Part shown: positions 1-45,917 of the stretch, one piece after another | How positions within the stretch are numbered: position 1 is the first letter of the stretch | Layout: every line of letters starts with the position of its first letter | Source: an uncultured virus (IMG/VR IMGVR_UViG_3300020404_001964) | Lineage: Duplodnaviria; Heunggongvirae; Uroviricota; Caudoviricetes | IMG/VR virus record: IMGVR_UViG_3300020404_001964 | Span: 1-64,000 of that record | Strand: one strand, 5' to 3' | DNA length: 64,000 bases | Made by a program: the position numbers and the translations under genes | The notes under the pieces: generated by a model | What the model was told of the DNA's origin: nothing | What the model saw: only the letters and a program-made list of their open reading frames with translations | Databases searched by the model: none

Positions 1-215
1 GGCAATACTCTTTCAAATGTGTCTGCTGTGTAAATTTTTGCTTGAGAAAAATAATCAAGCCAGGATTGAGTGCTTTCACCTTTGAAAGTACCAATTTCTA
101 ATATGTTGATTTTATCATTCTTAAATTTATCAAAATCTTGTTGATACAATTCATAGTATCTGTGCTTTGTAGCCTTATCACATTTATTTTTTATAAAAAT
201 TTCTTTTAAATTCAT
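1..215 (-). CDS. class I SAM-dependent (sugar O-)methyltransferase, partial (runs off the window)
   Basis: Not in the ORF track. Manual translation from ATG at 215 gives MNLKEIFIKNKCDKATKHRYYELYQQDFDKFKNDKINILEIGTFKGESTQSWLDYF..., with DK..H.Y and LEIG SAM motif I. Confidence 0.75.
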   Translation of the reverse strand, partial: MNLKEIFIKNKCDKATKHRYYELYQQDFDKFKNDKINILEIGTFKGESTQSWLDYFSQAKIYTADTFERVL

Positions 216-216
216 T

Positions 217-777
217 TTATTTCTTTCCTAATACAGTGTAGCCTGCGTTCAAAGTGTGCCTATAAACAAGTTTCCAATCTTGATGAGAGGATAAAAAATT
301 TTGCACAGATTTCCATAATCTTGGAAATAAAGTTGTATCATGTAGAACAATAGTTTGTGTTGTCCATGGAGAATACTTGTCTAATTCTTTTGCCACGTGT
401 TTTGGATTATGGTATCCGTCTATTAAAAGCACTTCAGTTTTTTTATCTATATTATATTTTAAAGAATCCGTTTGAATCATTTTAAATTCTATTTTATTTT
501 GTTGTGCGTGTGTTTCAAAAATATGTTTATGAGGATTAATATGAACAAAGTCAAGATCAATAGTTTCAATATATGGGATCATATTCATCATTGCTGTAGA
601 AGTAGAAGCACCCTGAAATGTTCCTATCTCTCTATAAGATTGAGCGTTTTTTGTCAATCTAGCAATTTCGTCTAGATAATCTGTGTATTGTTCTCCATGT
701 GCTTTCTGTAACTGTTGTTTCAACGAGATTTGATACTCATTAATGTTTGTTGCTTCCTTAAGATTTGCTACTATCAT
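217..777 (-). CDS. class I SAM-dependent methyltransferase (Methyltransf_24-like)
   Basis: EIGTFQGAST, LLIDGYH and VLHDT motifs. Start moved to 777 because of the ATGA overlap with the upstream stop. Confidence 0.75.
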   Translation of the reverse strand: MIVANLKEATNINEYQISLKQQLQKAHGEQYTDYLDEIARLTKNAQSYREIGTFQGASTSTAMMNMIPYIETIDLDFVHINPHKHIFETHAQQNKIEFKMIQTDSLKYNIDKKTEVLLIDGYHNPKHVAKELDKYSPWTTQTIVLHDTTLFPRLWKSVQNFLSSHQDWKLVYRHTLNAGYTVLGKK

Positions 778-1589
778 GATATACCTTCTACTTTCCATTC
801 TGATCTTGGTGAATTAGTAATGTGATACAGTTGTTCGTCACTAAAATAATCTGCACCACTTAATTGTACATGAACAAATTTAGTTGATGCGTTTCTACTG
901 TCATGTACTGGATCTTGTGATGCTAGAGGACCACGCACACCGTGAACATAATTATTCCATCCATTGTCTAATTCAGTATATTCACTGTGAACTATCATCA
1001 TGGCATGGAAATAATTTTGATCCACACTGTAAAATCTACCTAAGCCGCAGGATCTAATATAATTCTGATAATCTTGAAAAGGTACAAATTTTTCTCGAGC
1101 AAGTTGCATACCTTTCTTTGTAAACATCACCATTCCAGCATTATATACTTTTAAATAGCCGTCGGCATCCCGAGGCATGGTTGCGCCATATTTTGATTTG
1201 ACTGCTTGAGCCCACCGTTCGTCATTTTTTTTGTTTATGTTTTTACCTATGGTCGTTGATTCTCTATACTTGCCTTGAAAAGGTTCTGTGCAGATTCCAA
1301 AGTCTTTGATTGGCTCGTCAAAAATGTTTGCAGACAAGTTTTCAACTGGATATACATCTAAATCAATTACACAGACTTTATCGTATTCTAGAAAAGAATC
1401 ATCTAACATAGGATTCAACCATTCAAAATACATACCATCTTTGCGGACATATTTGCTGGCAATATTAGGACTTATATCTAATCGATAATCTGCACCAATT
1501 TTTTGTGCATACTTTCTAAAAAGTTTTTCACTATACCTACAACCTGGTCTCATCTCACCGGCCCACACTTGGTAAATTAAATTTTTCAT
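774..1589 (-). CDS. GT-A fold glycosyltransferase (GT8/GT34-like)
   Basis: DKVCVIDLDV (DxD), YNAGMVMF, DQNYFH, WN and FVH motifs. Confidence 0.7.
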   Translation of the reverse strand: MKNLIYQVWAGEMRPGCRYSEKLFRKYAQKIGADYRLDISPNIASKYVRKDGMYFEWLNPMLDDSFLEYDKVCVIDLDVYPVENLSANIFDEPIKDFGICTEPFQGKYRESTTIGKNINKKNDERWAQAVKSKYGATMPRDADGYLKVYNAGMVMFTKKGMQLAREKFVPFQDYQNYIRSCGLGRFYSVDQNYFHAMMIVHSEYTELDNGWNNYVHGVRGPLASQDPVHDSRNASTKFVHVQLSGADYFSDEQLYHITNSPRSEWKVEGIS

Positions 1590-2749
1590 TTTATTTCCTC
1601 TGCTAATTTTACATCTATGATGTCTTTTGGCTCATTCCTTATTTTCTTCATATTTTTTATTACATCTAAAGACACATATTTAAATCCATTGTAATATAAA
1701 TGATATATTGGATTGTTTACAATATTATCTAGAGTTACTTTGTAAAGATTTTCTAGATATTGATTATGAGAGTCAGCCGGTGGATTGTTATAATAAATTT
1801 TGTCTATATCTTTACAGTCTCTAAGTCCATATAATGAAAGCACAGTTGAACCTGTTATTATTTCATTTTCATTTGGTTTCATGTTACCCATCAGTTTTTT
1901 GTAATTGGGAAATGAAACGTTTTTTCTGTTGTTTAAAAAATGAATGCTATTGTTATTGAACACTGTTTTTGCTATTCGCACTGTGTCTTTATGAGTGTCA
2001 TTAATGTGAACTGAATGATTGCCAACTTTAAATAATGCTCTAATTTTGTTTTTCATTTCCTTCACAGTGTCAAGATTTTTAGCGTCTAACAATACAAAAG
2101 TTACTTGAGACATTCCCCTAAAACATTGTTTACATTTTTTTCTGATTGCTTTTTCTGTGCCCCAACCGTCAGAAAGATATATTTCTTTTATTAGACCAAG
2201 TTGTCCTGTGGAATTAAATGCTTCAGATGATTTGTAAAATATATTAGAATGTTTCTCAATAATATTCATGACTTCTGCCATGCGTGTATGAGCAATAGGA
2301 AACAAACACATCACATGAGTATTAGGTTTAAGTTTTGCATACTCTAATGCTGTTCTTTTCACTATAGATTGCGCCAATCCACGTTTAATAAAATATTCAC
2401 AATCACTTTCTACATAATTATTTTCATTTGGATTTGTATTTCTAATCTGAATTAATCTTTGATGATATAATGCGGCGGCTAATCTATGAGCACCGTTGAC
2501 GATGTGTCCTTCAGGATTTACCGGCACTGGTTCATCGACTGTGTTATTGATAATGGATTTAAATGCATTATCGAAATCTTCAAATCCGCGTTTTCTTGGA
2601 GAGCCTTCATAAAACCCATTCCAAATTCTAAGATGCTCTTTGTATGCATTTTTATAAAATTCACTTGTCAAATTCGACGCATACATATATTTGATAACAA
2701 CATCAAATCGTTTGTGTGTTAATAAATCATTTGGGTTCATTGTGTTCAT
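1586..2749 (-). CDS. multidomain protein: ParB/Srx-like + NDK-like + nucleotidyltransferase-like
   Basis: IVNGAHRLAAA (ParB-like); IRALF..GNHSVHINDT (NDK-like); ITGSTVLSLYGLRDCKDID (GS..DxD NTase motif). Confidence 0.5.
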   Translation of the reverse strand: MNTMNPNDLLTHKRFDVVIKYMYASNLTSEFYKNAYKEHLRIWNGFYEGSPRKRGFEDFDNAFKSIINNTVDEPVPVNPEGHIVNGAHRLAAALYHQRLIQIRNTNPNENNYVESDCEYFIKRGLAQSIVKRTALEYAKLKPNTHVMCLFPIAHTRMAEVMNIIEKHSNIFYKSSEAFNSTGQLGLIKEIYLSDGWGTEKAIRKKCKQCFRGMSQVTFVLLDAKNLDTVKEMKNKIRALFKVGNHSVHINDTHKDTVRIAKTVFNNNSIHFLNNRKNVSFPNYKKLMGNMKPNENEIITGSTVLSLYGLRDCKDIDKIYYNNPPADSHNQYLENLYKVTLDNIVNNPIYHLYYNGFKYVSLDVIKNMKKIRNEPKDIIDVKLAEEIK

Positions 2750-3600
2750 ACTTCATGCTCCAATGCATCTTTACACATATCAGCAACAGATTTAGTTTGC
2801 TCAAAGTGGATTGATTTAGTTGGTACAGTTGATACAGGTATATCACCTGGTCGTCTTTCTCTTTCAACTATGTGTAGGTTTTTCTTTGATACGTTGCACA
2901 TTGTATCTACAACCTCTCTTACACTTACACCCTCTGGTGATCCAAGACAATCGATGACTCCAGTGGGTTTATTTTCTACAACTTTGTGTAAAGAATCAAC
3001 AATGTCCACGACATGAGTATAATTCCTTATACAAGTACCATCGCGAGTATCATAATCTGTACCAAAGATTTCTAATGTATCGAATTTTCCGTTAGCCACT
3101 GCCGCGGCTTTTCTTATGAGATGAGAATATGCGTCATCAAATTTATTGAATCCGTTGTTACCACACACATTATAGAAACGTACAAGACTGTGATTCTTTT
3201 TGAACTGTTTAGTAAGTAATTCTCCACCATACTTTGTATTAGCATATGGTGATGCGGCAGGATCAAATGCCGAACCGGTAGAACAATAAACAAAGTGATC
3301 ACATTCAGCAAAGTCGATCACGTTTTTTGTACCAACCACATTTGTTTCATAATATAACCAAGGATTTTTTACTGATAAAGGAACCGATCCCATTGCTCCA
3401 ATATGCACAACTTTGTCGAAAGACATTCTCATTGGAGAAGGTTTACGAAAATCCCAGTCAATAATTTGTGATGAATATTTTTCTATGTTATTTTGTTTAA
3501 AATTAAAATCAGTGGCGATTACTTCATGACCATAATCTGCCGCAACCTTAACATAGTGAGCACCAATGTATCCTGTAGCGCCTGTTACTAATATTTTCAT
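2746..3600 (-). CDS. galE: NDP-sugar epimerase, UDP-glucose 4-epimerase-like
   Basis: GATGYIG Rossmann motif, YANTK (YxxxK), RFYNVCG, FGTDYDTRDGTCIRNYTHV, RRPGD. Confidence 0.8.
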   Translation of the reverse strand: MKILVTGATGYIGAHYVKVAADYGHEVIATDFNFKQNNIEKYSSQIIDWDFRKPSPMRMSFDKVVHIGAMGSVPLSVKNPWLYYETNVVGTKNVIDFAECDHFVYCSTGSAFDPAASPYANTKYGGELLTKQFKKNHSLVRFYNVCGNNGFNKFDDAYSHLIRKAAAVANGKFDTLEIFGTDYDTRDGTCIRNYTHVVDIVDSLHKVVENKPTGVIDCLGSPEGVSVREVVDTMCNVSKKNLHIVERERRPGDIPVSTVPTKSIHFEQTKSVADMCKDALEHEV

Positions 3601-3609
3601 TATATCTCC

Positions 3610-4272
3610 CTATTCAAAAATACCTTCTTGTTGCAGTTTTTTAAAAACTTCAAATTTAGGAACTTTTGGTCCTTCGAATTTCAACTTATGTCTAATATGT
3701 ATCATTTTTGCTTTTTCATATCCTGGAAAACAGTTTCCCCAACACCATTCTTCTGGTACATCTATTTGTTTCAATCCGGCTTGACTTGCCAATATATGAA
3801 CTATACCTTCGTCCAAATAGTTTTGGGCAAAAGGTTTCATTTCATTATCAACTATAAATTTTCTTAATTGTTTTCTTTGAGCATTAGTAAATTTCCAAAA
3901 TGCACCACCCCAAAAAGGACCATCTTTATACAAATATTTTTTATATTTTTTGTGTTTTAACATACTGTCAAAAAGTGTTTTTTGAGTTGCTGAATTTAAT
4001 CCAACTCCTGGTACATCAAATGCATTATCTTTCACACCTTTTACTACAAACATATCTAAATCTACCATTAACACATCTTCATATTTGTCAAATCTTTCGT
4101 CTAACATAATTAATTTTTGACATGGTGGTGATAACCATGATCGAAATTGATTGCCTAGAATTAATTCATATTCTGCACCACATTGTTTGGCATATTTTTC
4201 CATATTTGCTTTAGATGCCAATTCTAGAGGACCTAATGTTCCCGTCCAATGTTGTAAAATTATATTTTTCAT
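3610..4272 (-). CDS. GT-A fold glycosyltransferase
   Basis: EDVLMVDLDMF DxD motif; the N-terminus is paralogous to 774..1589 and 4269..5048. Confidence 0.65.
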   Translation of the reverse strand: MKNIILQHWTGTLGPLELASKANMEKYAKQCGAEYELILGNQFRSWLSPPCQKLIMLDERFDKYEDVLMVDLDMFVVKGVKDNAFDVPGVGLNSATQKTLFDSMLKHKKYKKYLYKDGPFWGGAFWKFTNAQRKQLRKFIVDNEMKPFAQNYLDEGIVHILASQAGLKQIDVPEEWCWGNCFPGYEKAKMIHIRHKLKFEGPKVPKFEVFKKLQQEGIFE

Positions 4273-5048
4273 ATTTTTTTCAATATTTCTTCTATGTTTT
4301 CACCACGTTGTGGTAATTTATCACGTAAAAAGAAGTGAACAAAGTGACTTTCTTTCTGTTTATGTTTTTCAACTGCGGTATATAATGAATTCCAACGCCA
4401 GTCCATATTTTTAACTTTCATTTTTTCTTTTTTCACCCACCAGTTCAACAACATCTGATCTGTACTCCATTTATAAAAACCAACTCCATCAACAAAATCT
4501 TTAAATTCAGGTCTTGAGATAAATTCCTTAGGTGTTTGACCTTGTAAATATTTTGCAAACGATTTATTCATCACCATCAGTCCCATATTGTAAAATTCTG
4601 CACCAAGATTATTCCATTTCCAGTCAACGTCTTTTAAATTTGTGAAAGCACTTCTTGAATATTTTGTAATTTTATTCTTATATTTGTGATTTAGCGGTAA
4701 TTCTCTTTCAGCAACGCCACCAAAATCATACTCTAGCGGTAAATCTAAGAAAATGTCAGGAGCATTGGATTTTATGTAGATGTCACTGTCAACTATTGCT
4801 ATCTGATCATATCTATCAAAGTATTCAAAGGCATTTTCTTTTTCGTAAATTGGCATATATCCCAATCTTTCCACTGCTTCTTTACTTCTACCTGTTCTTT
4901 CCATATCAGGTCGTATTTTTAATTTAGGTTCAGTGAGAACTATGTGATCTATACCGTATTTTTTGCAATATTCTGCCACACTATCAATACAAGTGCTATA
5001 AAGTTTGCTTGGCTTACCAACACTTACTTGAAATATCAATTTTTTCAT
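4269..5048 (-). CDS. GT-A fold glycosyltransferase (GT8-like)
   Basis: YDQIAIVDSDIY, YNMGLMV, DQMLLN, WRWN and FVHF motifs. Confidence 0.75.
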   Translation of the reverse strand: MKKLIFQVSVGKPSKLYSTCIDSVAEYCKKYGIDHIVLTEPKLKIRPDMERTGRSKEAVERLGYMPIYEKENAFEYFDRYDQIAIVDSDIYIKSNAPDIFLDLPLEYDFGGVAERELPLNHKYKNKITKYSRSAFTNLKDVDWKWNNLGAEFYNMGLMVMNKSFAKYLQGQTPKEFISRPEFKDFVDGVGFYKWSTDQMLLNWWVKKEKMKVKNMDWRWNSLYTAVEKHKQKESHFVHFFLRDKLPQRGENIEEILKKI

Positions 5049-5626
5049 TTATAATCCTTTGTAAAACTGAAATTTTTTTTAGAAAATGTAACTTTGTTAT
5101 CTAAATCAAAGTCTACATTACAAATTCCATTGTTCAAACACCAATCTGCCGGCATTGCTCCATTCTTGTCTATCCAACTAACAATTTTTTTTGCTCCTGC
5201 TGGTGTAATACAGTAGGCTCTTGCACCTTCCCACCATTGTCCAACGTTCATAGGTTTTGCTGGACGAAATCCTTCGAATTTTATGACATCTTTAAAATTT
5301 TTCTCAATTGAAAAACGTTTCTTGAACAAAACATCATGTTCAAAAATACAGATATTGTCTTTTTGCTCGGCACATTGTTTCCATAAATTATATTGACTTA
5401 AAAAACAACCTTGTGTTCCTGGTCTTGACAGCAAACGCACACATTTTTTACTTCCTTGGTAAATTTTAACAGCAAAGTCGTCTAGACCTTGTTTAGTTCC
5501 ATCAATGCCTTCATATAATTCAAGATTCCAACCCAATGCCTTGCCTGATGCCAGTGCTTCATTGGCCCATTGCACTGAATATTCATGATTTTTCACGTAA
5601 ATGATATATCCTTTAGGATTTTCCAT
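5045..5626 (-). CDS. glycosyltransferase family 25-like
   Basis: GCFLSQYNLW, IFEHDV, AYCITPAGAKK and PAD motifs. Confidence 0.75.
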   Translation of the reverse strand: MENPKGYIIYVKNHEYSVQWANEALASGKALGWNLELYEGIDGTKQGLDDFAVKIYQGSKKCVRLLSRPGTQGCFLSQYNLWKQCAEQKDNICIFEHDVLFKKRFSIEKNFKDVIKFEGFRPAKPMNVGQWWEGARAYCITPAGAKKIVSWIDKNGAMPADWCLNNGICNVDFDLDNKVTFSKKNFSFTKDYK

Positions 5627-6461
5627 AATTTTTGTTCCGTTCTTTATGAAATCTTAATTTTTCTTTATCCGTGAACCAAGTATACTTCAAGGTTTTGTAT
5701 CTGTGTCCATATTTCTTATTTCCTTTTGCTGTACTGAATATTTCTCCTGCAGATTTTAGTCCCCAACTGTTCCAATGATAAGGAATAGACTCAAAATTCC
5801 TTTTGTCTAAAATATCTTTCAATATATGTTGATCTATAAACCAATATATAGGTTTTTTAAATGCATCTATCATATTTTTTGAAAGTTCTGTTTTAAATTC
5901 ACTGCCTGCTGAACCTATTCCTGGAGAAATACAACTTGCAATATAAACTGACTGATCTTTTGGCTTTCTCATTGCACAAGGTTGTCTTGTTATTCTTTTA
6001 AAATCATGTATAGCAAAAGTATTTCTACAAATTCCGTCTGCATCTATTTGTAAGACGTGTTGATAGTGATCAAAAAGTTTATTCATCAACATAAATCTTG
6101 CACTTGACAAATAAATTTTTCTTTTTAGGTCATAATCATTTTTTGTTCCGCAAATTTCCGGTCCTCTAGCAAATACAGGGTGTTCTTTGTTCAATTGAAA
6201 CTGATCATAAAAATCTTTTGGGTGTCTTTCGAATGTGTACGTGATACTTGCATTTTTTATTAAATGTTTCATGGAGTGTTCTTGACCTTCTTCATAAATC
6301 ATGTGTACATGAACATGACTTTGTTTACCATTGTAATATAAAGTGCTTCTTGCAAGATATTGTCCGTATTCTGCCCAGTATTGTGGATCACAACTGAAAT
6401 AAATTATGCATTGTTTGTTTTCAGGTCTATCACCTTGTATTATCTGTTGATCAAAAATCAT
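5613..6461 (-). CDS. putative glycosyltransferase / nucleotide-diphospho-sugar transferase
   Basis: ARF...VLQIDADGI (DxD) and WFIDQ; lies inside the glycosyltransferase operon. Confidence 0.5.
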   Translation of the reverse strand: MIFDQQIIQGDRPENKQCIIYFSCDPQYWAEYGQYLARSTLYYNGKQSHVHVHMIYEEGQEHSMKHLIKNASITYTFERHPKDFYDQFQLNKEHPVFARGPEICGTKNDYDLKRKIYLSSARFMLMNKLFDHYQHVLQIDADGICRNTFAIHDFKRITRQPCAMRKPKDQSVYIASCISPGIGSAGSEFKTELSKNMIDAFKKPIYWFIDQHILKDILDKRNFESIPYHWNSWGLKSAGEIFSTAKGNKKYGHRYKTLKYTWFTDKEKLRFHKERNKNYGKS

Positions 6462-7168
6462 TTTCTATATTTCTTAGGTCTACAAAAACTGTTTGCACTT
6501 CTTTGTTTATGGTTTATCCAATATTTTTCATTTATTCTAAAATAACTTGTATCTGTATATTTTAAATTGACAGCAACTGAATTAAGAGCAACATCTGGAC
6601 TCAATGCACCTTTGGCCCAAACATAATCGATCATTTTGTTTGCTCCTATTGGTGTAATAATGTAACTGTGACTGCCTTTGATACTTGTTTTATTCAATAA
6701 TTCTGTGCCTGATAAATTAGGAATCCTATCGCAGTGATTATGTATACCTTCTCCACGATCACTTAAACAATGTGCATTGTAATCTTTAACAATTCTGCTG
6801 AATCTATCAAGATGTAATACATCTTCAAATTTGCTTAAAAAATATTCAGGTATGTCACGTAATTGTACTGCGTCATGTTCTAATATTAAAAAAGGTTCAT
6901 TTTTTTCTCTACACAATTTCCACAACCTTAGATGGGATAACAAACAACCTATTATTCCCGGATTTAATATTTTAAATTTTTGTCCAATTTTAAATCTCTT
7001 CAGTTCGTGTTCTTTCCAATGGATGTCTACATCATTTCCATATGTTGCAGGAAACTTTTGACCTTGTTCACCAAATTTACCAACGGATTCTAGTGTATCT
7101 TTTGCTAAGGCTTCACTTAAAGGTTCGCCCATCATGGTTATCACGTATGTTGGAATTTTTAAAGACAT
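6458..7168 (-). CDS. glycosyltransferase family 25-like
   Basis: IGCLLSHLRLW, LILEHDA and SYIITPIGA. Start moved to 7168 (MSLKIP), 8 nt after an ATAAATA motif, which also avoids overlap with uvsY. Confidence 0.75.
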   Translation of the reverse strand: MSLKIPTYVITMMGEPLSEALAKDTLESVGKFGEQGQKFPATYGNDVDIHWKEHELKRFKIGQKFKILNPGIIGCLLSHLRLWKLCREKNEPFLILEHDAVQLRDIPEYFLSKFEDVLHLDRFSRIVKDYNAHCLSDRGEGIHNHCDRIPNLSGTELLNKTSIKGSHSYIITPIGANKMIDYVWAKGALSPDVALNSVAVNLKYTDTSYFRINEKYWINHKQRSANSFCRPKKYRK

Positions 7169-7176
7169 ATTTTGAA

Positions 7177-7183
7177 TATTTAT
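7177..7183 (-). promoter_or_regulatory. putative late promoter (ATAAATA) of the glycosyltransferase operon
   Basis: Resembles the T4 late -10 element TATAAATA; lies in the gap just upstream of the first gene of the operon. Confidence 0.55.
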
Positions 7184-7205
7184 TGGATTGTATTTTTGGT
7201 GTGCT

Positions 7206-7664
7206 TTAGATAGAAGCGTCTTCCATTCCAGCAACTCTCAGTTTAACAATGTTTGTGATTTGCCATTGTTTTTGGTCTAGTCCTTTTGTAATTCCTAGCC
7301 ATTTATTTCTTAACAATGCAAATTCATTGATTATTTTTTCATAATCAACCACATCATCTTCACCGTCAACATATTTTTCAACGTCTCTGCTGGATAGTGC
7401 TCTTTGATAATTTTCTAAATATTTTTTGAAATGTTTTGAACGCAGTCTACGTAATTCTATGTTCATATACTGCAATATTGCTTCAATTTCTTGCAGTTGA
7501 TTGAATCTTTGTTCTACGATACCAGGCATATCTGCTGATGCTTTCTCAACATTGCCTTTTATTTTTATTTCGTAACGTGCTTGTTGTAACTCGTCTTCAT
7601 AATGTTTGATGGCATCAGGAATAGCACTGATGTCTTTGGCTATTTTTTGATACCATCCTGACAT
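7206..7664 (-). CDS. uvsY: recombination mediator UvsY-like
   Basis: Helical protein with YLENYQRALSSRDVEKYVDGE and KQWQITNIVKLR; adjacent to uvsX and ssb. Confidence 0.75.
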   Translation of the reverse strand: MSGWYQKIAKDISAIPDAIKHYEDELQQARYEIKIKGNVEKASADMPGIVEQRFNQLQEIEAILQYMNIELRRLRSKHFKKYLENYQRALSSRDVEKYVDGEDDVVDYEKIINEFALLRNKWLGITKGLDQKQWQITNIVKLRVAGMEDASI

Positions 7665-7885
7665 TAATAGTCCTCTTCTTCCGAGTCTTCGATTTCTAAA
7701 CAGTATGTAATTGCTTTGTCTAAATCATCATCGGCGCCAAGAGCATCTTTTAAATCATCATCTTCTGCTCCGTGATCCACCAGTAAGTCTACAAATTTTT
7801 CTGCAATAACATCCATTGGTTGTTTTCTATCTATGTACTCTTTGAAAAATGTCCATAGTTCCACAACTTGACTTCCAGATAACAT
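7664..7885 (-). CDS. hypothetical acidic protein
   Basis: 73-aa ORF tightly packed between uvsX and uvsY. Confidence 0.7.
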   Translation of the reverse strand: MLSGSQVVELWTFFKEYIDRKQPMDVIAEKFVDLLVDHGAEDDDLKDALGADDDLDKAITYCLEIEDSEEEDY

Positions 7886-29093: not shown

Positions 29094-29109
29094 TCATATA
29101 ATTACTTAC

Positions 29110-29544
29110 ATGAACAGTAAAATTGTAGGGTGTGGAGCACTCTTCTACACATTAGATACCAAAAGATTTTTGTTACTACACAGAACTCAAAGCAAACAAA
29201 ATAATGTTTGGGGACTAGTAGGTGGTACAACCACAACAGATAAAAATTTGTGGGAAGGTCTACAAAGAGAAATTAAAGAAGAAATAGGCGAACAAAAAGT
29301 TAAAAAAACTATTCCAATGGAAACGTTCATCAGTAATGATGAAAATTTTTTGTACCACACTTATTTGTGTGTTGTTGAAAAAGAATTTATTCCTTCATTA
29401 AACACAGAACACGATGGATATGCTTGGGTAAGTTTTGGCAATTGGCCCAAACCATTACACCAAGGTCTACGTAAGACTTTTCAAAATAAAACAAATCAAA
29501 TTAAATTAGACACTGTGTTTAAGATGTTAAAATTAATCAAATGA
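29110..29544 (+). CDS. Nudix hydrolase
   Basis: WGLVGG.....NLWEGLQREIKEEIG Nudix box and EHDGYAW. Start moved to MNSK, 5 nt after TATAATTA. Confidence 0.85.
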   Translation: MNSKIVGCGALFYTLDTKRFLLLHRTQSKQNNVWGLVGGTTTTDKNLWEGLQREIKEEIGEQKVKKTIPMETFISNDENFLYHTYLCVVEKEFIPSLNTEHDGYAWVSFGNWPKPLHQGLRKTFQNKTNQIKLDTVFKMLKLIK

Positions 29545-30800
29545 AAATAATCGGCGATGTTATGTTGGATGTCTGGGTACAAGGGAATTGTACCAAAGTA
29601 TCTCCAGAAGCATCAGCACTTGTTCTTAAGGAAAGCAAACGTAATTACAACGTAGGAGGGGCAGGAAATCTCGCTTTAAACCTGTCAAACTTGGGCGTAG
29701 ACACGCATCTTTATAGTTCGGTGGGCAACGATGCCCCAGGGCATAAAATACAGGAAATATTGTTGAAAAATAACATTAAAACATTCATCAGTAGCGATGC
29801 CAAAACAAGCACAGTGAAGACTAGAATGATTGGTAGTGATGGTCAACACCTATTAAGACTTGATAAGGAAGACAAATATACTGATGCTGAACCTACCAAA
29901 AATTTAATTAAAAATTTACAAAAAGACGATATTGTATTGATAAGTGATTACGATAAAGGAGTTGTTAATAATTCTTTAGTCAAAGATATTGTGTCTTCTG
30001 TAAAAAGAGTTTATGTTGACCCGAAACAACAACCTACAAATTATAAAGGTGCATATCTTGTGAAACCTAATATGAAAGAGTATGAACAATGGTTTGGTGA
30101 ATTCACAAAAGAAAATGCGGATCAATTTAGAAAAGAATTTGCTTGGGAGTGGCTTGTAATAACTGACGGTGGTAATGGTATTCATGTTGTTGGTGAAAAT
30201 ACTTATAAACACATCACGGGTGATGCTGTTGAATTAGCAGATGTCAGTGGTGCAGGTGACACTGTTCTAGCAATAATTGTAAAGTATGTTGAGCAGGGAA
30301 CAAATATGATTGATGCTTGTACATTAGCATTAAAAGGTGCTAGTGCTGTTGTTCAACACAGAGGAGTAACTGTTGTACAATTATCAGATATAGAAGATAC
30401 AGTGGTTTGGACCAATGGTGTTTTTGATATATTACATCAAGGACATTTAGAATTATTAAAATTTTCAAAAAGTCAGGGCGATAAATTAATTGTTGGCATT
30501 AATTCAGACGAAAGTGTCAAAAGATTAAAAGGAGAAGGTCGTCCATTGAATAATACTATTTTAAGAAAGCAACAACTATTAGAACTTCCATGGGTAGATG
30601 AAGTTGTTGTGTTTGAAGAAGACACGCCTATTGAAGCAATTAAAGAACACCAACCAAACGTAATAGTAAAAGGTGGAGATTATACTGTTGAAACAACAGT
30701 AGGCAATGAATTAGCAGATGTAAGAATATTTCCAACAGTGAAAGGTTTTTCAACATCTAATATAGTGGACAAAGTAAATGAACAAAGAAATAAAAAATAA
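29541..30800 (+). CDS. hldE: bifunctional heptose-7-phosphate kinase / heptose-1-phosphate adenylyltransferase
   Basis: PfkB domain (IGDVMLD, GGAGN, SDYDKG, DVSGAGDT) plus cytidylyltransferase-like domain (TNGVFDILHQGH, GINSDESVKRLKG..RP, KGGDY, STSNI). Confidence 0.92.
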   Translation: MKIIGDVMLDVWVQGNCTKVSPEASALVLKESKRNYNVGGAGNLALNLSNLGVDTHLYSSVGNDAPGHKIQEILLKNNIKTFISSDAKTSTVKTRMIGSDGQHLLRLDKEDKYTDAEPTKNLIKNLQKDDIVLISDYDKGVVNNSLVKDIVSSVKRVYVDPKQQPTNYKGAYLVKPNMKEYEQWFGEFTKENADQFRKEFAWEWLVITDGGNGIHVVGENTYKHITGDAVELADVSGAGDTVLAIIVKYVEQGTNMIDACTLALKGASAVVQHRGVTVVQLSDIEDTVVWTNGVFDILHQGHLELLKFSKSQGDKLIVGINSDESVKRLKGEGRPLNNTILRKQQLLELPWVDEVVVFEEDTPIEAIKEHQPNVIVKGGDYTVETTVGNELADVRIFPTVKGFSTSNIVDKVNEQRNKK

Positions 30801-31380
30801 TAAAATTATTATAAAGAATGTTTTATCTGATGAACATTTTAAACAACTAACAGATATTATTTTGAGTGATAAATTTCCTTGGTTTTATCAAGACCATGTG
30901 GTTAATCCGGAACAATCTAGCACAGAAGAAAAATATCAAATTCAATTTGTACACAAATTTCATGAAGTTAGTAATATTGTGACAGGACCAGAACTATGGA
31001 ATATGTTAATACCTATATTTGCTGTGTTACAGCCTCATACTTTTTTACGTGTAAAAGCAAACAATATTCCTGGACAAGATAAAATTATTACTCACGGTAT
31101 GCATTGTGATGTAAGTGTGCCATTAAGTTATACAGCAATTTTTTATTGTAATACAAATAATGGCTATACAGAATTTAAAGATGGAGATAAAATTGTAAGC
31201 GAAGCAAACTCAATGGTTATATTTCCAAGTTATATGGAACATACTGGAAGTACTTGTAGTAACGCAAGGTCTAGAGTGAATATAAACATCAATTATGTTA
31301 CACATCATTCTGACCAACTTGTAAAAGATATTGCTCCAAAAAATTCAGAAGAAATTGTAAAACTATGGAGTCATGTATGA
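30778..31380 (+). CDS. 2OG-Fe(II) oxygenase-like protein
   Basis: HCD (HxD), TAIFY.NTNNGYT.F, IFP...EHTG and RVNININY. Confidence 0.7.
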   Translation: MNKEIKNNKIIIKNVLSDEHFKQLTDIILSDKFPWFYQDHVVNPEQSSTEEKYQIQFVHKFHEVSNIVTGPELWNMLIPIFAVLQPHTFLRVKANNIPGQDKIITHGMHCDVSVPLSYTAIFYCNTNNGYTEFKDGDKIVSEANSMVIFPSYMEHTGSTCSNARSRVNININYVTHHSDQLVKDIAPKNSEEIVKLWSHV

Positions 31381-32195
31381 GAATTGTTGTAACAGGATCT
31401 GCTGGTTTTATAGGAAAAAATTTAATAAAACATTTAAGAGATCAAAACCATGATGTAACTGAATTTGAATATACTGAAAATAGTTTTCCTGATCCTAGTT
31501 TGTATGATTGGGTTATACATCTAGGTGCTATTAGTTCTACAACAGAAAGAAATGTAGAATTAATAATGAATCAAAATTACGAATACAGTCTAAAATTATT
31601 ACAAATGTGTGACACAATGGGTGTAAATTTTCAATATTCTAGTTCTGCTAGTGTGTATGGAAACACAAACAGTTTTGTTGAAAGTGGTCCAGTGTATCCA
31701 CAATCACCATATGCTTGGAGCAAGTATCTGTTTGACAGATTTGTTCAACAAGCAATGGGAGAATTTAAAATTTTAGTACAAGGTTTTAGATATTTTAATG
31801 TTTATGGCAATAATGAAGAACATAAAGGAGACCAAGCATCTCCAGTAACAAAGTTTTCTAAACAAGCAAAAGATACAGGAGTAATTAAAGTATTTGAAAA
31901 CAGTGACAAGTTTTTAAGAGATTTTGTATGTGTAGATGATATTTGTAACGTACATTGTCAAATGCTTGGAAAAGATACAAGCGGTATTTTTAACATAGGA
32001 ACAGGCAAAGCAACATCATTTCAATCAGTAGCAGAGTCTGTAGCCAAAAAATACAATGCCAAAATAGAAACTATTCCAATGCCACAAGCATTGAAAGGAC
32101 AATACCAGTCTTACACCTGTGCAGATTTGACAGAATTAAATAAAAATGTTACAATAAATTATAAAACAGTTGAGCAATATTTAAATGATCAATAA
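31377..32195 (+). CDS. gmhD: ADP-L-glycero-D-manno-heptose 6-epimerase
   Basis: VTGSAGFIG, HLGAISSTTE, YSSSASVYG, YAWSK, FRYFNVYG..E.HKG.QAS and YQSYTCAD; ATGA-overlap start at 31377. Confidence 0.88.
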   Translation: MRIVVTGSAGFIGKNLIKHLRDQNHDVTEFEYTENSFPDPSLYDWVIHLGAISSTTERNVELIMNQNYEYSLKLLQMCDTMGVNFQYSSSASVYGNTNSFVESGPVYPQSPYAWSKYLFDRFVQQAMGEFKILVQGFRYFNVYGNNEEHKGDQASPVTKFSKQAKDTGVIKVFENSDKFLRDFVCVDDICNVHCQMLGKDTSGIFNIGTGKATSFQSVAESVAKKYNAKIETIPMPQALKGQYQSYTCADLTELNKNVTINYKTVEQYLNDQ

Positions 32196-32553
32196 AGAAG
32201 GAAAAGTAGATAAAGGTTGGGGTTATGAATTAATATGGGCCTCCAACGACAAGTACTGTGGAAAAATAATGGTATTTGAACGCAAAGGTGCAAAATTTTC
32301 AATGCACTTTCATAAAACAAAAGATGAATCATGGTTTGTAAATGAAGGCAGATTCCTTTTAAGTTGGATAGATACTAAAACAGCAACACTTTTAACAAAA
32401 GAAATAAAAGAAGGTGAAACTTGGAGAAATTTACCTTTAATGCCTCATCAAGTACAATGTTTAACTGATAGAGGAAGTATCACAGAAGTAAGCACCGCTG
32501 ACGATCCAGAAGACAATTACAGAGTCATTCCTGGAGATTCTCAAAAAAAATAA
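32185..32553 (+). CDS. cupin-fold sugar isomerase-like protein
   Basis: KGWGYE, YCGK, SMHFH..KDESW, PH and EVST. Confidence 0.75.
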   Translation: MINKEGKVDKGWGYELIWASNDKYCGKIMVFERKGAKFSMHFHKTKDESWFVNEGRFLLSWIDTKTATLLTKEIKEGETWRNLPLMPHQVQCLTDRGSITEVSTADDPEDNYRVIPGDSQKK

Positions 32554-39716: not shown

Positions 39717-39722
39717 TCTTTT

Positions 39723-41585: not shown

Positions 41586-41604
41586 TATGCTACATCCATA
41601 TTTA

Positions 41605-42039
41605 TTATTCTGTTACCTGCGTTCCACCTACCAAAGCATTTTGCGTGGCAAAATAAGTAGCACCAAATATAATTTTTGAACCACTATATTTTTCTGTTGC
41701 ACTTTTATCTGCTGGATCAATTTTAATTCTTACATATGAGTTATTAACTTCACTTGCAATCTTTATTAAATTGTTTCCTAGATTAGATCTACCATATATT
41801 GATAAACTGCTTTGATTAGGACTTGCCGCTACAAGTACTTTTAAAATTTCTTTATTGTTTGTGTCGTAATCTACACTGATTGTATATTCTGCTGTGGTGA
41901 ATGTATTCACGTGCCATTGGTCAAGTATCATGCCATCTTCTACTACAGAATATGGCCCATTGTAAGACAGGTTTAACCCGTTCTTCATTAGAAGAGTATT
42001 TCTGTCTCCTTTTCCAAAAAATCTTGATACATCAAACAT
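41605..42039 (-). CDS. hypothetical structural protein
   Basis: Beta-rich 144-aa ORF with a late-promoter motif and AGGA upstream. Confidence 0.6.
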   Translation of the reverse strand: MFDVSRFFGKGDRNTLLMKNGLNLSYNGPYSVVEDGMILDQWHVNTFTTAEYTISVDYDTNNKEILKVLVAASPNQSSLSIYGRSNLGNNLIKIASEVNNSYVRIKIDPADKSATEKYSGSKIIFGATYFATQNALVGGTQVTE

Positions 42040-42108
42040 ATAGAATAATCCTTATTATAGTGTATTTACCTATTTTAGAACTATTGTATTACTACTGTAT
42101 TTTGGGTA

Positions 42109-43086
42109 TTACTGCTTGTTTTTGCTCTGTTTAAGCATCTTTTCAACTGACTTCACTACCTTGTCTTCAGTTTGGTCTTCCATAGCCATTATTCCCTCAT
42201 TCAGCCTATCGCTAAACTCATCTGATGTGATTCTAATTGGTGAATATACTCTATCTTCCGATCCAAGGTCAATAATATCTATATTTTCAGCATCAGGAAA
42301 TGATGTGTTTATAGGATACGTTGAACCTATTATTACTGTGGCTGTTTTATCAAATGCATAAGCAAGGTGTTGCCCTACAGAATCACAGCCAACAAAATGA
42401 TTGGTCTGTTTAATTAATGCCATCCATATTCTAATGTGAACATTCATAGGTGTAGCCACTGGTGCCGACATATGATTTTTAAATTCTAGTGGAAATTCAC
42501 TCATCATCATAACGCCATACTTTTTAGATAATTTTCTTACAATGCTCCAGAGGTTTTTCAGTTCAATACTTCTACCTGTAACATCTGAAATATCAGGTTG
42601 TTTACCTTTTTCCATTTGTTTTTCAGTAATTTTCTCAGGTTGAGCACCTCTTCCAAAAGGTTGAACTACTATAATTTTATCTTTGCCTGTTTTTTCTTTT
42701 ACTTCAGTAATCATTTGTCTTGCCATCAGTAATTCTTCTTTGCTTAATCTTATTGTAGGTTTAGGTAGGTCTCTTATTCCTTTATTATTAATAGCAATAT
42801 CATATGCTTGAGCAAGACTACACTTTTGATTGTAATATTCCCATATTCTATAAGGCTCTGGACTAATTAATTCTCTATCTTTAAGCATTTCTTGGAACAA
42901 ATTTTTGTGCCAACTGTCATATGCTCTAAAATGAAATTTAGGATGACCTTTGAATACATCTGTACCACCTTCACAAACTAAAATTGGATCTTTATCTGGG
43001 TTTTCTTCTAGGTATTTTTCTACTGCTGGAATAGAACTGATCATTCTACCTGCTCCGCCATTTAAAAATATTGCTGTCTTTTTCAT
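42109..43086 (-). CDS. GT-B fold glycosyltransferase, GT9 (heptosyltransferase)-like
   Basis: FVGCDSVGQHLAYAFDK...IIGST resembles the GT9 D(S/T)G..H.A.A motif; N-terminal GG.GR..S.IPA. Confidence 0.65.
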   Translation of the reverse strand: MKKTAIFLNGGAGRMISSIPAVEKYLEENPDKDPILVCEGGTDVFKGHPKFHFRAYDSWHKNLFQEMLKDRELISPEPYRIWEYYNQKCSLAQAYDIAINNKGIRDLPKPTIRLSKEELLMARQMITEVKEKTGKDKIIVVQPFGRGAQPEKITEKQMEKGKQPDISDVTGRSIELKNLWSIVRKLSKKYGVMMMSEFPLEFKNHMSAPVATPMNVHIRIWMALIKQTNHFVGCDSVGQHLAYAFDKTATVIIGSTYPINTSFPDAENIDIIDLGSEDRVYSPIRITSDEFSDRLNEGIMAMEDQTEDKVVKSVEKMLKQSKNKQ

Positions 43087-44912
43087 TTATTTGCTACCTT
43101 TATTAATTTGTTATATTCAGGCAAGTACAAATACTCAATTTCACTGTGTATCAATGTGCGTACAGCATCTTCTAAAGTTTCAACTAACGGTTCACCACCT
43201 AAATTAAATGAAGTATTGAATATAATAGGACAATCTGTTTGTTTATGAAACTCTTTGATTAAGTCATAGTACAAAGGATTTTGTTCTCTCTTAACTGATT
43301 GTATTCTACAAGTTCCATCAACGTGAATAATACTTGGAATTTTTTCTTCTATGCCTGGTTGACAGTTTACAGCATACATCATATGTGGTGTTTCTTCCAT
43401 ACCACGCAAGTCAAACCATTCATGTACAAATTCATGTAGTATAGTTCCGGCAAATGGTCTGAAATATTCTCTATGTTTAACTTTGTTTACGTGGTCTTTA
43501 CCATTAGGGTCTCTTGGATCATACAATATTGATCTGTTACCCAATGCTCTTGGACCGTTTTCACTTGCTCCTTGGAATATTGAAACAATATTTCTTTCAG
43601 CAATAATTTTTACAACTTCTTCGTTGGTTGCTTCTGTTAATTCTACACCATCTTGAGCACAAACATTTTGTATTTGTTCATCTGTGTATGTTCTTTTTGG
43701 ACCTAAGTATAGTGTAGGTTCATCAACTTTCTTTTCTTTTGTTTGTGTTAGACTGTAATAGAACAACATTGCGGCACCCATAGCCGTTCCCGCATCATTT
43801 GAAACTGGTTCTGCGTAAAATTTTATGCCATCTTTCTTTAAACTATCTAAATAATAATAATTTGCTACACAATTTAATCCATATCCTCCTGAAAACACAA
43901 CATTTTTACATCCACTCATCTGTACTGCTTTGTAAATTAAGTCTAAACATTCTTTTTGTGATTCTTTTTGTACAGCATATGCCAAATCTCTTCTATTTTG
44001 CATTTTTGTCCAATCGTCTTTGTCTTCTGATTCAGGATTTTGATCTATAAATGGATATAATCCACTGTTTACTAACGATGCATTAGGATATGTTGGCACA
44101 ATTAAGTTTCTATTAGATAAAGAATAGTGTCCTTCTTTCTTAAACAATGGTGGAATAATATCATTTTCTTTTCCATAAGGAAATAATCCCATTGTCTTTC
44201 CTGCTTCAATGGCACTGAATCCACAATACTGTGTTACTGCTTCATAAACTTTTACAATTCCTGCTCTGTCTGTGAATAATGCTTGGTGTGTTTTGCCTGG
44301 CTCACCTATTGAATCAGAAGCAAAGTCTGGATAAAATGCTCCTGGACTTGCTTCACCTGTTCCATAATGTTTGTACAGTGCGTAGATATCATTTGGATAA
44401 TCACAACTAAAAATACTTTCTACTTCAAACACAGTTGTTTGTCCTGACACACTGTTATTAATTGGAATAAAAGTTCCTGCTCCGTCTACTATTACTGCTA
44501 CTGCTTTATCAAATCCTGATCTATAAAAAGCACACGCGGCATGAAGTTTGTGATGAATGTGTGACAAGTCAATTACTTGAGGATGTTTTGTGTCAAATAC
44601 GTGTCTATCAATTAATCCTAATTTTCTTGCTATTCCTGTGTAAACATCATCTCCTGAATAGTCTACTCTACCAGTTGATCTGTCTTCTAAACTTTGTGTG
44701 TGAGCAACAACAAGATAATCAATCTTGTCTGTGTATTTTAAAATTTCTACCATTGAAGCATATGGTCCACCGTCATATTTTCTTCTTGATAATCTTTCTT
44801 CTTCAATTGAAAATACTACTTCACCGTCTTTTAATAGACAAACACCTGCATTGTGTCCTCTGGCTATTGCGGCAATGTAACCTGTTTTGTTATATTTTTC
44901 TATGTCATCCAT
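43083..44912 (-). CDS. O-carbamoyltransferase (NodU/CmcH/TobZ family)
   Basis: EEERLSRRK, HHKLHA, VDGAG, GKTMGL.PYG, GG..LNCVAN, ENGPRALGNRSIL, RE.FRPFA, HVDGTCR.Q and NTSFN. Confidence 0.93.
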   Translation of the reverse strand: MDDIEKYNKTGYIAAIARGHNAGVCLLKDGEVVFSIEEERLSRRKYDGGPYASMVEILKYTDKIDYLVVAHTQSLEDRSTGRVDYSGDDVYTGIARKLGLIDRHVFDTKHPQVIDLSHIHHKLHAACAFYRSGFDKAVAVIVDGAGTFIPINNSVSGQTTVFEVESIFSCDYPNDIYALYKHYGTGEASPGAFYPDFASDSIGEPGKTHQALFTDRAGIVKVYEAVTQYCGFSAIEAGKTMGLFPYGKENDIIPPLFKKEGHYSLSNRNLIVPTYPNASLVNSGLYPFIDQNPESEDKDDWTKMQNRRDLAYAVQKESQKECLDLIYKAVQMSGCKNVVFSGGYGLNCVANYYYLDSLKKDGIKFYAEPVSNDAGTAMGAAMLFYYSLTQTKEKKVDEPTLYLGPKRTYTDEQIQNVCAQDGVELTEATNEEVVKIIAERNIVSIFQGASENGPRALGNRSILYDPRDPNGKDHVNKVKHREYFRPFAGTILHEFVHEWFDLRGMEETPHMMYAVNCQPGIEEKIPSIIHVDGTCRIQSVKREQNPLYYDLIKEFHKQTDCPIIFNTSFNLGGEPLVETLEDAVRTLIHSEIEYLYLPEYNKLIKVANK

Positions 44913-44914
44913 AA

Positions 44915-45868
44915 TTAATCCTCTATTGGGTCACCGTTTACTGCTGATACTACATAATCTTCTATTTCAGGAGTCATTGTCATTATTTGTTCTTGTTTTC
45001 TACTAATTCTTTCATCCATTGTTATTCTAATTGGATCATATTCACGTACCATTTGTCCTAAATCTATGATGTTAAACTTATCTGATTTTGCATATGATGT
45101 GTTTTCTGGATATGTAGCGCCGAACACTACACTTGCTGGCGTATCTAAACTGTAAGCAAGGTGTTGTCCCAATGAATCACATCCTAAAAAATGGTCTGCG
45201 TGTTTTATAATTGATGCCCATTGTCTTAATTCAACTTTTTCAGGCATAGCAACTTCATCTGGAAATCCAGCATCTTTAAAATCAATTCCAAACTCTGACA
45301 TTAACATAACAGCAAAATCTTTTTCCTGTAATTTTTTAATTAATCTTTTTAAATTGAAAAACTCTATACTTCTGTTTGTTTTATCTACAAAAGAACCATC
45401 AATTTGTTCTATTGCTCTGCCAAAAGGTTGTATCACAACAACTTTTTCTTTTTTAAGTTTTTCTTTTACTTGATCAACTGCTTGTCTTCCTGCTATTAAT
45501 TCTTCTTTGCTTAAAACAAGTGTTGACTTAGGTAAGTCTCTTAAGCCTTTGTTGTTTATTAATAAATCAAATGCTTGAGCAATGTTACATTTTTGATTAA
45601 AATATTCATGTACTCTATAAGGCTCTGGACTTACAATGTCCATGTTGACTAATTTTGTGTGAAATAAATTTTTATGATACATATCGTAAGTTTTAGAATC
45701 CAGTGTTGGATGACCTTTCATTATGTCACACACTCCTTCTATTACTACGATAAAATTTGGATCATTTCCTTCTTCTTGATATTTTTCTAAGGCTGGAATA
45801 GCAGATATAATTCTTCCCATGCCGCCATTAAGTAAGAATGCTTTAGGTCTTTTTTGTTCTGTGCTCAT
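44915..45868 (-). CDS. GT9-like glycosyltransferase, paralog of 42109..43086
   Basis: FLGCDSLGQHLAYSLD...VFGAT; shares SPEPYR, RDLPK and QPFGR with its paralog; TATAAGTA at 45878-45885. Confidence 0.65.
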   Translation of the reverse strand: MSTEQKRPKAFLLNGGMGRIISAIPALEKYQEEGNDPNFIVVIEGVCDIMKGHPTLDSKTYDMYHKNLFHTKLVNMDIVSPEPYRVHEYFNQKCNIAQAFDLLINNKGLRDLPKSTLVLSKEELIAGRQAVDQVKEKLKKEKVVVIQPFGRAIEQIDGSFVDKTNRSIEFFNLKRLIKKLQEKDFAVMLMSEFGIDFKDAGFPDEVAMPEKVELRQWASIIKHADHFLGCDSLGQHLAYSLDTPASVVFGATYPENTSYAKSDKFNIIDLGQMVREYDPIRITMDERISRKQEQIMTMTPEIEDYVVSAVNGDPIED

Positions 45869-45917
45869 TTGTACAATTACTTATAAATTTATTTTTTGTA
45901 GAATTACGATAGTGATT

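Follow-up and report, generated by a model that had tools for sequence, protein, structure and literature searches.

The first 64 kb of IMG/VR record IMGVR_UViG_3300020404_001964, a 134,280-base contig of an uncultured tailed virus, is the stretch of DNA analysed here (the window). It carries three clusters of sugar-related genes, here called a, b and c, which an earlier interpretation made from the nucleotide sequence alone (the sequence-only reading) had taken for a single, late-expressed system glycosylating virion proteins. The gene calls of all three clusters were verified at their coordinates. The contig is estimated to be 37% complete and has a GC content of 31–43%; its major capsid protein is nearest to that of Vibrio phage 2.275.O (69%), followed by the PA5oct/Paride group (67%), and the source phage is a marine PA5oct-related jumbo phage, not a cyanomyovirus. 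Our analysis shows that b and c together form a single module, conserved and widespread, and that it adjoins genes for candidate fibre-tip proteins. The genes concerned are the following:

29110..29544, plus strand, Nudix hydrolase (PF00293), a resident neighbour of gp15
29541..30800, plus strand, HldE-like heptose-7-phosphate kinase / heptose-1-phosphate nucleotidyltransferase (419 aa; PF00294 and PF01467)
30778..31380, plus strand, 2-oxoglutarate-Fe(II) oxygenase-like accessory gene (200 aa; PF13640, E 1e-3)
31377..32195, plus strand, GmhD/HldD-like ADP-heptose 6-epimerase (TIGR02197, E 9e-74)
32185..32553, plus strand, metal-binding cupin, candidate sedoheptulose-7-phosphate isomerase (PF07385, weak)
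42109..43086, minus strand, GT9-like paralogue b (GT9b, 325 aa; phrog_8954, E 1e-132), with Arg at the catalytic-Asp position
43083..44912, minus strand, NodU/TobZ-type O-carbamoyltransferase (609 aa; PF02543 and PF16861)
44915..45868, minus strand, GT9-like paralogue a (GT9a, 317 aa; PF01075, E 8e-7), with R19 at the WaaC D13 position
45918..47700, minus strand, two acidic fibre-chaperone-like proteins (221 and 218 aa; phrog_9740 for the latter) flanking a 128-aa gene
47739..50717, minus strand, three Cys-rich (31–32 Cys), glycine-rich-domain putative fibre-tip proteins, candidate acceptors (AlphaFold2 model, fold match)
50776..62378, minus strand, upstream fibre block (110, 106, 1899 and 1717 aa; PHROG tail-fibre matches)

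The linkage of b and c, for which the sequence-only reading had suggested a check by synteny and co-occurrence of hldE, gmhD, GT9 and carbamoyltransferase, is borne out by four cultured cyanophages, S-CAM1, P-SSM2, S-SSM7 and Sf-FS3, which carry the b and c genes as a single block in the order fibre, small genes, Cys-rich genes, chaperone-like gene, GT9-like gene, carbamoyltransferase, HldE C-terminal half, HldE N-terminal half, small haloacid dehalogenase-like (HAD) gene, cupin and GmhD. The single block spans the Kyanoviridae, and the module is also found in the PA5oct-related jumbo lineage; the upstream fibre block travels with it, its gene order being shared by the IMG/VR loci and the cyanophages. 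GT9a has matches in 53 of 50,697 phage records, 23 of them at full length, and these 23 accessions are the same as those of the 23 best carbamoyltransferase matches (44–62% identity) and all match HldE as well, a set that includes redundant strains and comprises about ten distinct phages. S-CAM8 and S-SSM5, by contrast, have carbamoyltransferase matches of 38–39% identity and no GT9 match. The other 30 GT9a matches come from Vibrio and Aeromonas phages of 78 kb. Two of these were examined, one from Aeromonas and one from Vibrio; in both, a lone GT9 homologue directly adjoins a gene for a fibre or tail protein, and these neighbours contain 17 and 15 Cys per 150 residues. The hosts of these phages produce their own ADP-heptose. 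The carbamoyltransferase accompanies GT9 at 33 of 35 IMG/VR GT9 loci and a Cys-rich gene at 32, all five misses falling at locus ends, and GT9 is present in 12 of 12 contigs selected by hldE. Accessory oxygenases, a halogenase and methyltransferases come and go within the block among relatives, and what we take, from a GCS motif, to be an SGNH-like gene lies between GT9 and the carbamoyltransferase or inside cluster b in several relatives (L039:10939–11805, L040:10994–11863 and L077:8249–9034). No membrane segment is predicted in any cluster enzyme.

Cluster c (42109–45868) has the composition given by the sequence-only reading, a NodU-type carbamoyltransferase between two GT9-like genes. Both the Kae1-like N-terminal domain (PF02543, 79 bits) and the YrdC-like C-terminal domain (PF16861, 199 bits) of the carbamoyltransferase score above the cut-off, and its PDB matches are TobZ (E 2e-43), GdmN and NovN-type enzymes, with E values from 1e-50 to 1e-42. 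For cluster b, the Nudix, hldE, gmhD and cupin genes first listed are all present; missed was the oxygenase-like gene, which occurs in 58 of 80 hldE loci and is missing from distant ones, and the Nudix gene falls outside the pathway. Nudix is a resident gene after gp15: PA5oct, though without any of these genes, has it in the same place, and it is also retained in relatives without hldE at that site. It was rejected as a pathway step.

The donor sugar is most likely an ADP-heptose, as had been proposed. HldE has both domains, GmhD shares 40% identity with RfaD of E. coli and conserves Tyr140 and Lys178, and the best matches of both are heptose-specific NCBIfam models (for HldE, NF008454 at E 2e-92, TIGR02198 and TIGR02199), all cluster b scores lying under the equivalog cut-offs. 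There is no GmhA among the cluster b genes, and a search of 13 records, three of them complete cyanophage carriers, found the GmhA-type SIS domain (PF13580/SIS_2) in none (the control matched in 9 of 14). The cupin lies alongside HldE in 60 of 80 loci, many of which are cut by contig ends, and is present in all seven cyanophage regions viewed; PF07385 matches 16 of 16 members weakly, and the best PDB match of the cupin profile is D-lyxose ketol-isomerase 2y0o (E 2.5e-6), with a quercetin dioxygenase a very close second (3e-6). Lyxose isomerases interconvert mannose and fructose, which is the same stereochemistry as that of the GmhA step, and the cupin therefore likely replaces GmhA as sedoheptulose-7-phosphate isomerase. 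Two cyanophages have an added transketolase gene. Two relatives have other genes inserted in cluster b, for a class I aldolase-like protein (L227:5965–6756) and a PurN-like formyltransferase (L226:7012–7533).

The two GT9-like paralogues are 50% identical, and 19 of 35 related loci have a second GT9 copy. The AlphaFold2 model of GT9a (predicted local distance difference test score, pLDDT, 87) matches Veillonella GT9 3tov (Z 23.5), WaaF (21.0), TibC (20.4) and WaaC (19.2), with no score above 11.3 beyond the GT9 group; the root-mean-square deviation (rmsd) is 3.5–3.7 over 253–282 aligned residues for 3tov, WaaF and WaaC, and 3.2 over 268 for TibC, and Foldseek agrees (E 5e-11). Searches with the GT9 profile against PDB sequences gave nothing meaningful, and no model of the bacterial autotransporter heptosyltransferase (BAHT) family in NCBIfam matched GT9 at E 1e-3. 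When aligned with four E. coli GT9 enzymes, G18, D231 and H236 are invariant; R19 falls on WaaC D13, and the GGAGR motif of GT9b aligns with WaaC G12–D13, so that all four bacterial enzymes have Asp at the catalytic site and both phage paralogues Arg. We take D13 of WaaC to be the catalytic general base, at the start of helix 1. At E 1e-3 the GT9 family has 679 representatives, and the residue counts were made on the 150 listed; among those without a gap, the donor-site residues D231 and H236, equivalent to WaaC D261 and H266, are conserved in 131 of 134 and 133 of 137, the glutamate of the EPY motif (E82) is conserved in 102 of 108, and the QPxG, RS and DS donor-site residues are preserved. 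The catalytic Asp is missing, and therefore the chemistry either differs or is absent; TibC, for one, requires its catalytic Asp110 (PMC4358343). The assignment of GT9 as a heptosyltransferase thus stands as to the predicted GT9-group fold and the donor-site residues and fails as to an ordinary enzyme: by modelled fold and gene context the protein is like a heptosyltransferase, but it lacks the catalytic base.

The chaperone-like genes next to cluster c invariably adjoin the Cys-rich genes; their chaperone role is our assumption, from a Tfa-like C-terminus. When modelled (pLDDT 74), the Cys-rich proteins resemble the fibre of cyanophage Pam3 (7ypx; Z 15.0, with an rmsd of 3.5 for 192 residues) and, less closely, the tail tip of Bxb1 (Z 11.4), and because of these matches they are likely to be fibre-tip adhesins. 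Their profile matched S-CAM1 at 3 places and gave no match at E 1e-3 in P-SSM2 and S-SSM7, though Cys-rich genes were seen in both by blastp and on inspection; tblastn of one Cys-rich protein against cultured phages gave no match. Elsewhere in the fibre region, a 620-aa protein (39723–41585, minus strand) carries within it an alpha/beta-hydrolase-like domain (PF01738, E 3e-4), which the shorter homologues of distant relatives lack.

Each cluster is preceded by a short AT-rich motif:

7177..7183, minus strand, ATAAATA, 8 nt ahead of cluster a; a lineage-specific feature
29097..29104, plus strand, TATAATTA, 5 nt before the Nudix gene; outside the strict consensus
45878..45885, minus strand, TATAAGTA, 9 nt before GT9a

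These distances agree with the 5–9 nt reported from the sequence. After removal of four overlapping or antisense open reading frames and correction of three starts, 24 of 111 curated starts have ATAA[AG]TA no more than 30 nt away (dinucleotide shuffles: mean 4.6, maximum 13, of 200), with just 35 occurrences over both strands of the 134-kb contig; gp32, uvsX and uvsY are without it. The notion that the clusters share a motif with the structural genes is supported. Clusters a and c match this enriched consensus; TATAATTA of cluster b departs from it, but in all 80 of the 80 related loci ATAANTA stands 5–6 nt ahead of the start of Nudix. TAA[AG]TA precedes 23 of 35 GT9a-type starts, all 23 genes at ≥75% identity; in distant relatives, the GT9a-type gene comes after a chaperone-like gene, which itself has the motif in 25 of 32 cases. 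The contig consensus is RATAAATA, compared with the strict TATAAATA of the T4-type late promoter, and the contig encodes a gp55-like late sigma factor (phrog_12791, E 1e-80); thus, as in T4-type phages, a late sigma and an enriched TATAAATA-like element before starts appear to go together. By analogy with T4 biology, we infer that the motif is a late promoter. Many of the late motifs lie 5–9 nt before the ATG, without space for a Shine-Dalgarno site, others 13–26 nt upstream with AGGAG, which suggests that late mRNAs of the former kind are leaderless. Metatranscriptome contigs from three runs of one study match the region with identities reaching 99%, and some of the pieces cover GT9b and the carbamoyltransferase; carrying no strand, start or timing, and with DNA carry-over possible, they were not counted as expression.

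We propose, with a probability of roughly one half, that the b and c module places carbamoyl-heptose on the phage's own fibres. The cupin would convert sedoheptulose-7-phosphate to D,D-heptose-7-phosphate, and, judging by their families, the HldE kinase, a GmhB-type phosphatase, the HldE nucleotidyltransferase and GmhD would carry it on to ADP-L,D-heptose, the GmhB-type step being supplied by the host, encoded in the unsequenced 63% of the genome, or skipped. The donor would likely be made late in infection, and GT9a and GT9b would then probably move heptose to the Cys-rich fibre-tip proteins or to a neighbouring fibre protein; lacking the usual general base, they would rely on another acid, for which the essentially invariant E82 is a candidate, or on an acceptor that needs no deprotonation. 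By comparison with NodU, TobZ and WapO, the carbamoyltransferase would use carbamoyl phosphate for ATP-dependent O-carbamoylation of a sugar hydroxyl. Cluster a would be a separate, swappable island, and extension of the heptose is not part of the proposal. What favours fibres over DNA or the lipopolysaccharide (LPS) core as the target, as the sequence-only reading had anticipated, is the gene linkage of b and c to fibres. A bolder version, in which the jumbo phages and cyanophages abundant in the sea use a phage-specific GT9 branch without a catalytic base to attach carbamoylated heptose to the Cys thiolates of their receptor-binding fibre tips, the cupin is a new sedoheptulose-7-phosphate isomerase and the island adds a strain-specific outer glycan, appears to us quite improbable; if true, it would make the hypervariable outer glycan a source of phage ‘serotypes’ and turn the ‘LPS genes’ of cyanophages into virion-decoration genes.

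Several observations weigh against the fibre proposal. At the catalytic-Asp site, the 100 of the 150 listed representatives that cover it have 95 Arg, 3 Lys, 1 Cys, 1 Ser and 0 Asp. A chloroplast NDH subunit of GT9 fold scores Z 18.5 against GT9a, and therefore the fold does not establish transferase activity; in addition, TibC is tied with the LPS enzymes in fold score, not above them. A GmhB-type HAD (TIGR01662) was not found on the 37% complete contig; two of four relatives have one next to the cupin, and cyanophages have a small DxDGT HAD near the cupin, which was not found in 13 contigs of the source-phage lineage. Full hldE is present in only 9 of 14 GT9-bearing contigs, and three relatives show the order gp15, Nudix, small gene, fibre, with no heptose genes there; the GT9-bearing contigs without heptose genes are fragments (completeness 5–44%), and these phages might use host ADP-heptose. 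In P-TIM68, S-SM2 and Sf-CH8, the HldE, GmhD, cupin and HAD genes are part of general sugar islands that lack this GT9, and therefore the heptose can feed other transferases. The large fibres are Ser/Thr-rich as originally described (fractions 0.16–0.22), but fibre and tail proteins of PA5oct, without the module, are equally so (0.17–0.24); this richness is not unusual, and it was rejected as evidence of glycosylation, carrying no weight. Finally, the IMG/VR loci were recruited via words from the source phage, so that most are close kin and not independent.

Cluster a is a different kind of locus:

1..7168, minus strand, 5′ part of an island behind uvsY: two GT25, three GT8-like and one putative glycosyltransferase (GT), a GalE-like gene, a 387-aa gene and two methyltransferases

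The count of about six GTs, two methyltransferases and a GalE-like enzyme was verified, and the 387-aa gene (1586–2749, minus strand) had been left out. The GT25 genes match PF01755 (E 2e-12 and 9e-13), the three GT8-like paralogues have DxD, YNxG, DQ and His motifs, the GalE-like gene matches TIGR01179 below the cut-off (E 2e-45), and the methyltransferases match PF13578 (E 2e-4) and phrog_21658; the further putative GT (5613–6461) has no family match. For 4269–5048, the atlas places GT8 on 12–13% of family members; the GT8-like profile against the PDB returned nothing meaningful, and tblastn of one cluster a GT against cultured phages gave no match. The 387-aa protein has no Pfam, PHROG or atlas family; presumably, it combines a ParB/Srx-like N-terminal motif (NGAHRLAAA) with a nucleotidyltransferase-like C-terminal GS..DxD motif. 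The cluster is cut at the contig end; in relatives, the island has about 13–20 genes, with 18 gene arrangements among 30 complete loci, and ends with a GT8 gene plus several paralogues without a Pfam match, which, by their motifs, we assume to resemble capsule-type GT-B enzymes. In distant relatives, a nucleotidyltransferase fused to a mannose-6-phosphate-isomerase-type cupin is found in the island (L169:15130–15900), close relatives keeping the cupin alone.

The island is inherited separately from b and c and is swappable. A complete 220-kb relative carries a GT of the a type but lacks GT9 (six other contigs selected by the a-type GT are fragments, uninformative on GT9 absence), the island core genes also occur in Mosig, after nrdAB and ruvC, and in Caulobacter giant phages such as CcrColossus, none of which is among the GT9 carriers, and the late motif is conserved in just 34 of 73 relatives; in 37 of the 39 that lack it, other genes start the island directly after uvsY. 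On these grounds, the three clusters were rejected as a single inherited unit, and the one three-cluster system of the sequence-only reading is not upheld. In CcrColossus, a cultured Caulobacter siphophage, a GT/methyltransferase block with three island core homologues is flanked by a tail gene on one side and the lysis cassette on the other (L231:5249–9802), which supports a late and possibly virion-related role for such islands, not a union with b and c. For the island itself, we consider a virion target possible, at odds somewhat short of even. An extra GT9-like gene (PF01075, E 0.014; e.g., L126:10777–11553), absent from the source contig, is present in 51 of 80 a-type loci, 40 of the 51 with the canonical GD motif.

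How, then, do other explanations fare against carbamoyl-heptosylation of fibres? That all three clusters build one glycan, b and c making a heptose-carbamoyl primer that island a extends and methylates, is what the sequence-only reading had in mind. The motif stands before all three clusters in the source phage, a, b and c occur together on two related contigs, CcrColossus has its three a-type core genes between tail and lysis genes, and the extra GT9-like gene with its GD motif could use ADP-heptose; given that the island exists without the GT9 module, starts differently in many relatives, follows nrdAB and ruvC in Mosig and lacks this extra gene on the source contig, we regard the scheme as improbable. 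The alternative that carbamoyl-heptose, together with the island a sugars, goes onto host LPS or capsule, blocking superinfection or altering grazing, seems unlikely for the module as a whole and is more plausible for island a than for b and c. It has been proposed for such genes by Sullivan 2005 (PMC1079782), Iyer 2021 (PMC7824862) and Zaragoza-Solas 2020 (PMC7029224), and a precedent is WapO, the putative carbamoyltransferase of Pseudomonas core sugars (PMC13552734). The closest families of the cluster enzymes are those of LPS enzymes (WaaC/F/Q, GT8, GT25), the variability of island a resembles that of an O-antigen locus, and LPS core enzymes are likewise soluble, so that missing membrane segments are no argument here. 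However, the LPS of Synechococcus WH8102 is described as having neither heptose nor Kdo (PMC4515613), and therefore the full module of Sf-FS3, isolated on this strain, would lack a WaaC-type acceptor; late-type motifs and a fixed linkage to the fibre tip are not expected of a superinfection shield, and no multi-pass exporter or polymerase was found on the 134-kb contig (37% of the genome).

It is also possible, if rather improbable, that the GT9-fold proteins are not transferases acting on macromolecules but bind or process ADP-heptose, as a virion or assembly factor or in a small-molecule step, with carbamoylation of the nucleotide-sugar. The family-wide loss of the catalytic Asp, the NDH subunit as a precedent and the variable accessory oxygenases, halogenase and methyltransferases would fit, and the S-SSM6a cluster has been suggested to be a source of secondary metabolites (Iyer 2021, PMC7824862). 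Nevertheless, replacement of the Asp by an essentially invariant Arg together with conservation of the donor-site residues and EPY among the 150 representatives listed fits active chemistry, and a small-molecule product leaves the adjacency to Cys-rich fibre genes in unrelated phages unexplained. Hypermodification of DNA, with heptosyl- or carbamoyl-5-hydroxymethylcytosine (5hmC) formed at replication or packaging, we consider very unlikely. Phage enzymes have been published that form Hep- and di-Hep-5hmC, by a GT-B enzyme, from clusters that can sit among structural genes (bioRxiv 2023.12.21.572611), and 5-carbamoyloxymethylcytosine (PMC8670742); island a lies among recombination genes, and late timing alone is compatible with modification at packaging. 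These systems co-encode the 5hmC source that hypermodification needs, but PF00303 and PF00145 were found in 0 of 3 complete carriers (S-CAM1, P-SSM2 and S-SSM7), with controls matching in 10 and 9 of 14 and the source contig being without its replication region; a TET/JBP search was uninformative, its control itself being silent. Moreover, the T4 beta-glucosyltransferase is not among the fold matches listed for GT9a, and the carbamoyltransferase (net −20), like GT9a (net −9), is an acidic protein. Both the DNA and the LPS-core alternatives are thus weakened because three complete carriers are without a 5hmC-priming enzyme and the host of one carrier has LPS without heptose or Kdo.

Compared with known systems, the module is closest in gene content to the ‘LPS’ or capsule clusters of cyanomyoviruses (P-SSM2 T4-GC 302–308; S-SSM7/S-SSM6a; S-CAM1), which contain orthologous GT9-like, carbamoyltransferase, HldE-half, cupin and GmhD genes adjacent to fibres; in the source phage, by contrast, a 2344-aa fibre-like gene divides the block into two parts, HldE is a fusion, there are two GT9 copies and the small HAD gene is absent. 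With the LPS core system (WaaC/WaaF/WaaQ, HldE/GmhD and WapO), the module shares the donor pathway, the fold, the D261/H266 equivalents and the pairing of heptose with a carbamoyltransferase; it differs in the Arg at Asp13, the cupin instead of GmhA, the location in virion operons and at least one host without a Kdo acceptor. Virion glycosylation in mycobacteriophages relies, we assume, on enzymes of different families. There, too, phage-encoded GTs are proposed to decorate virion proteins, but the targets are the C-termini of capsid and tail-tube proteins, the host is Gram-positive and the available text names no heptose or carbamoyl pathway (Freeman 2023, via PMC12619734). The BAHT enzymes TibC and AAH are alike in having a GT9-type fold (Z 20.4 for TibC), ADP-heptose as donor and, for the phage protein in our preferred model, a protein acceptor. 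TibC heptosylates serines of adhesins, specifically of beta-helices, and forms a dodecamer that contains iron, has an additional N-terminal part and needs the catalytic Asp110 (PMC4358343), whereas GT9a, aligned to TibC residues 88–391, starts at the catalytic domain and has Arg at the Asp110 site (WaaC register). Island a, in turn, resembles the host-recognition-cluster islands of pelagimyophages and the CcrColossus GT block in being a hypervariable set of GT8, GT25 and methyltransferase genes with homologous core genes; it lies behind uvsY and not, as the pelagimyophage islands, in the fibre region, and the published reading of the latter is modification of the host O-chain (PMC7029224).

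The genes themselves are already published as ‘LPS/capsule’ genes (2005, 2021). In the accessible text, the cyanophage papers give the block host-surface or metabolite roles and name neither the GT9-like gene nor a virion target (PMC1079782, PMC7824862), and within the open-access literature, subscription papers and supplements lying outside the search, we found no link of the heptose-carbamoyl block to virion proteins. If the fibre proposal is true, cyanophage ‘LPS genes’, regarded as host-modifying auxiliary genes since 2005, would be reassigned to virion morphogenesis; virion glycosylation would extend to tailed phages of Gram-negative marine hosts, using a sugar, heptose, that is absent from the LPS of some of these hosts; and there would be a new GT9 branch with different catalysis as well as a non-homologous replacement of GmhA. 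The question is directly testable, cultured carriers being at hand in P-SSM2, S-CAM1, S-CAM3, S-SSM7 and Sf-FS3. Thirteen ‘genome’ loci were not counted as cellular homologues, all being contigs of metagenome-assembled genomes, 12 of the 13 with phage-like gene order.

Beyond the window, a gene for porphobilinogen synthase (ALAD; PF00490, E 4e-39) lies at contig positions 75047–75847, just downstream of the major capsid gene, and the gene at 129913–130527 is, as we presume from a motif, possibly alternative-oxidase-like. A fourth late-region block, after the baseplate and fibre genes, spans contig positions 123460–134280, where it is cut at the contig end; it includes several unannotated proteins of 200–460 aa whose starts are GT-like, as well as at least three proteins of the radical SAM type, two of them with SPASM domains. 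Radical SAM-SPASM enzymes near Cys-rich fibres may represent another tailoring system.

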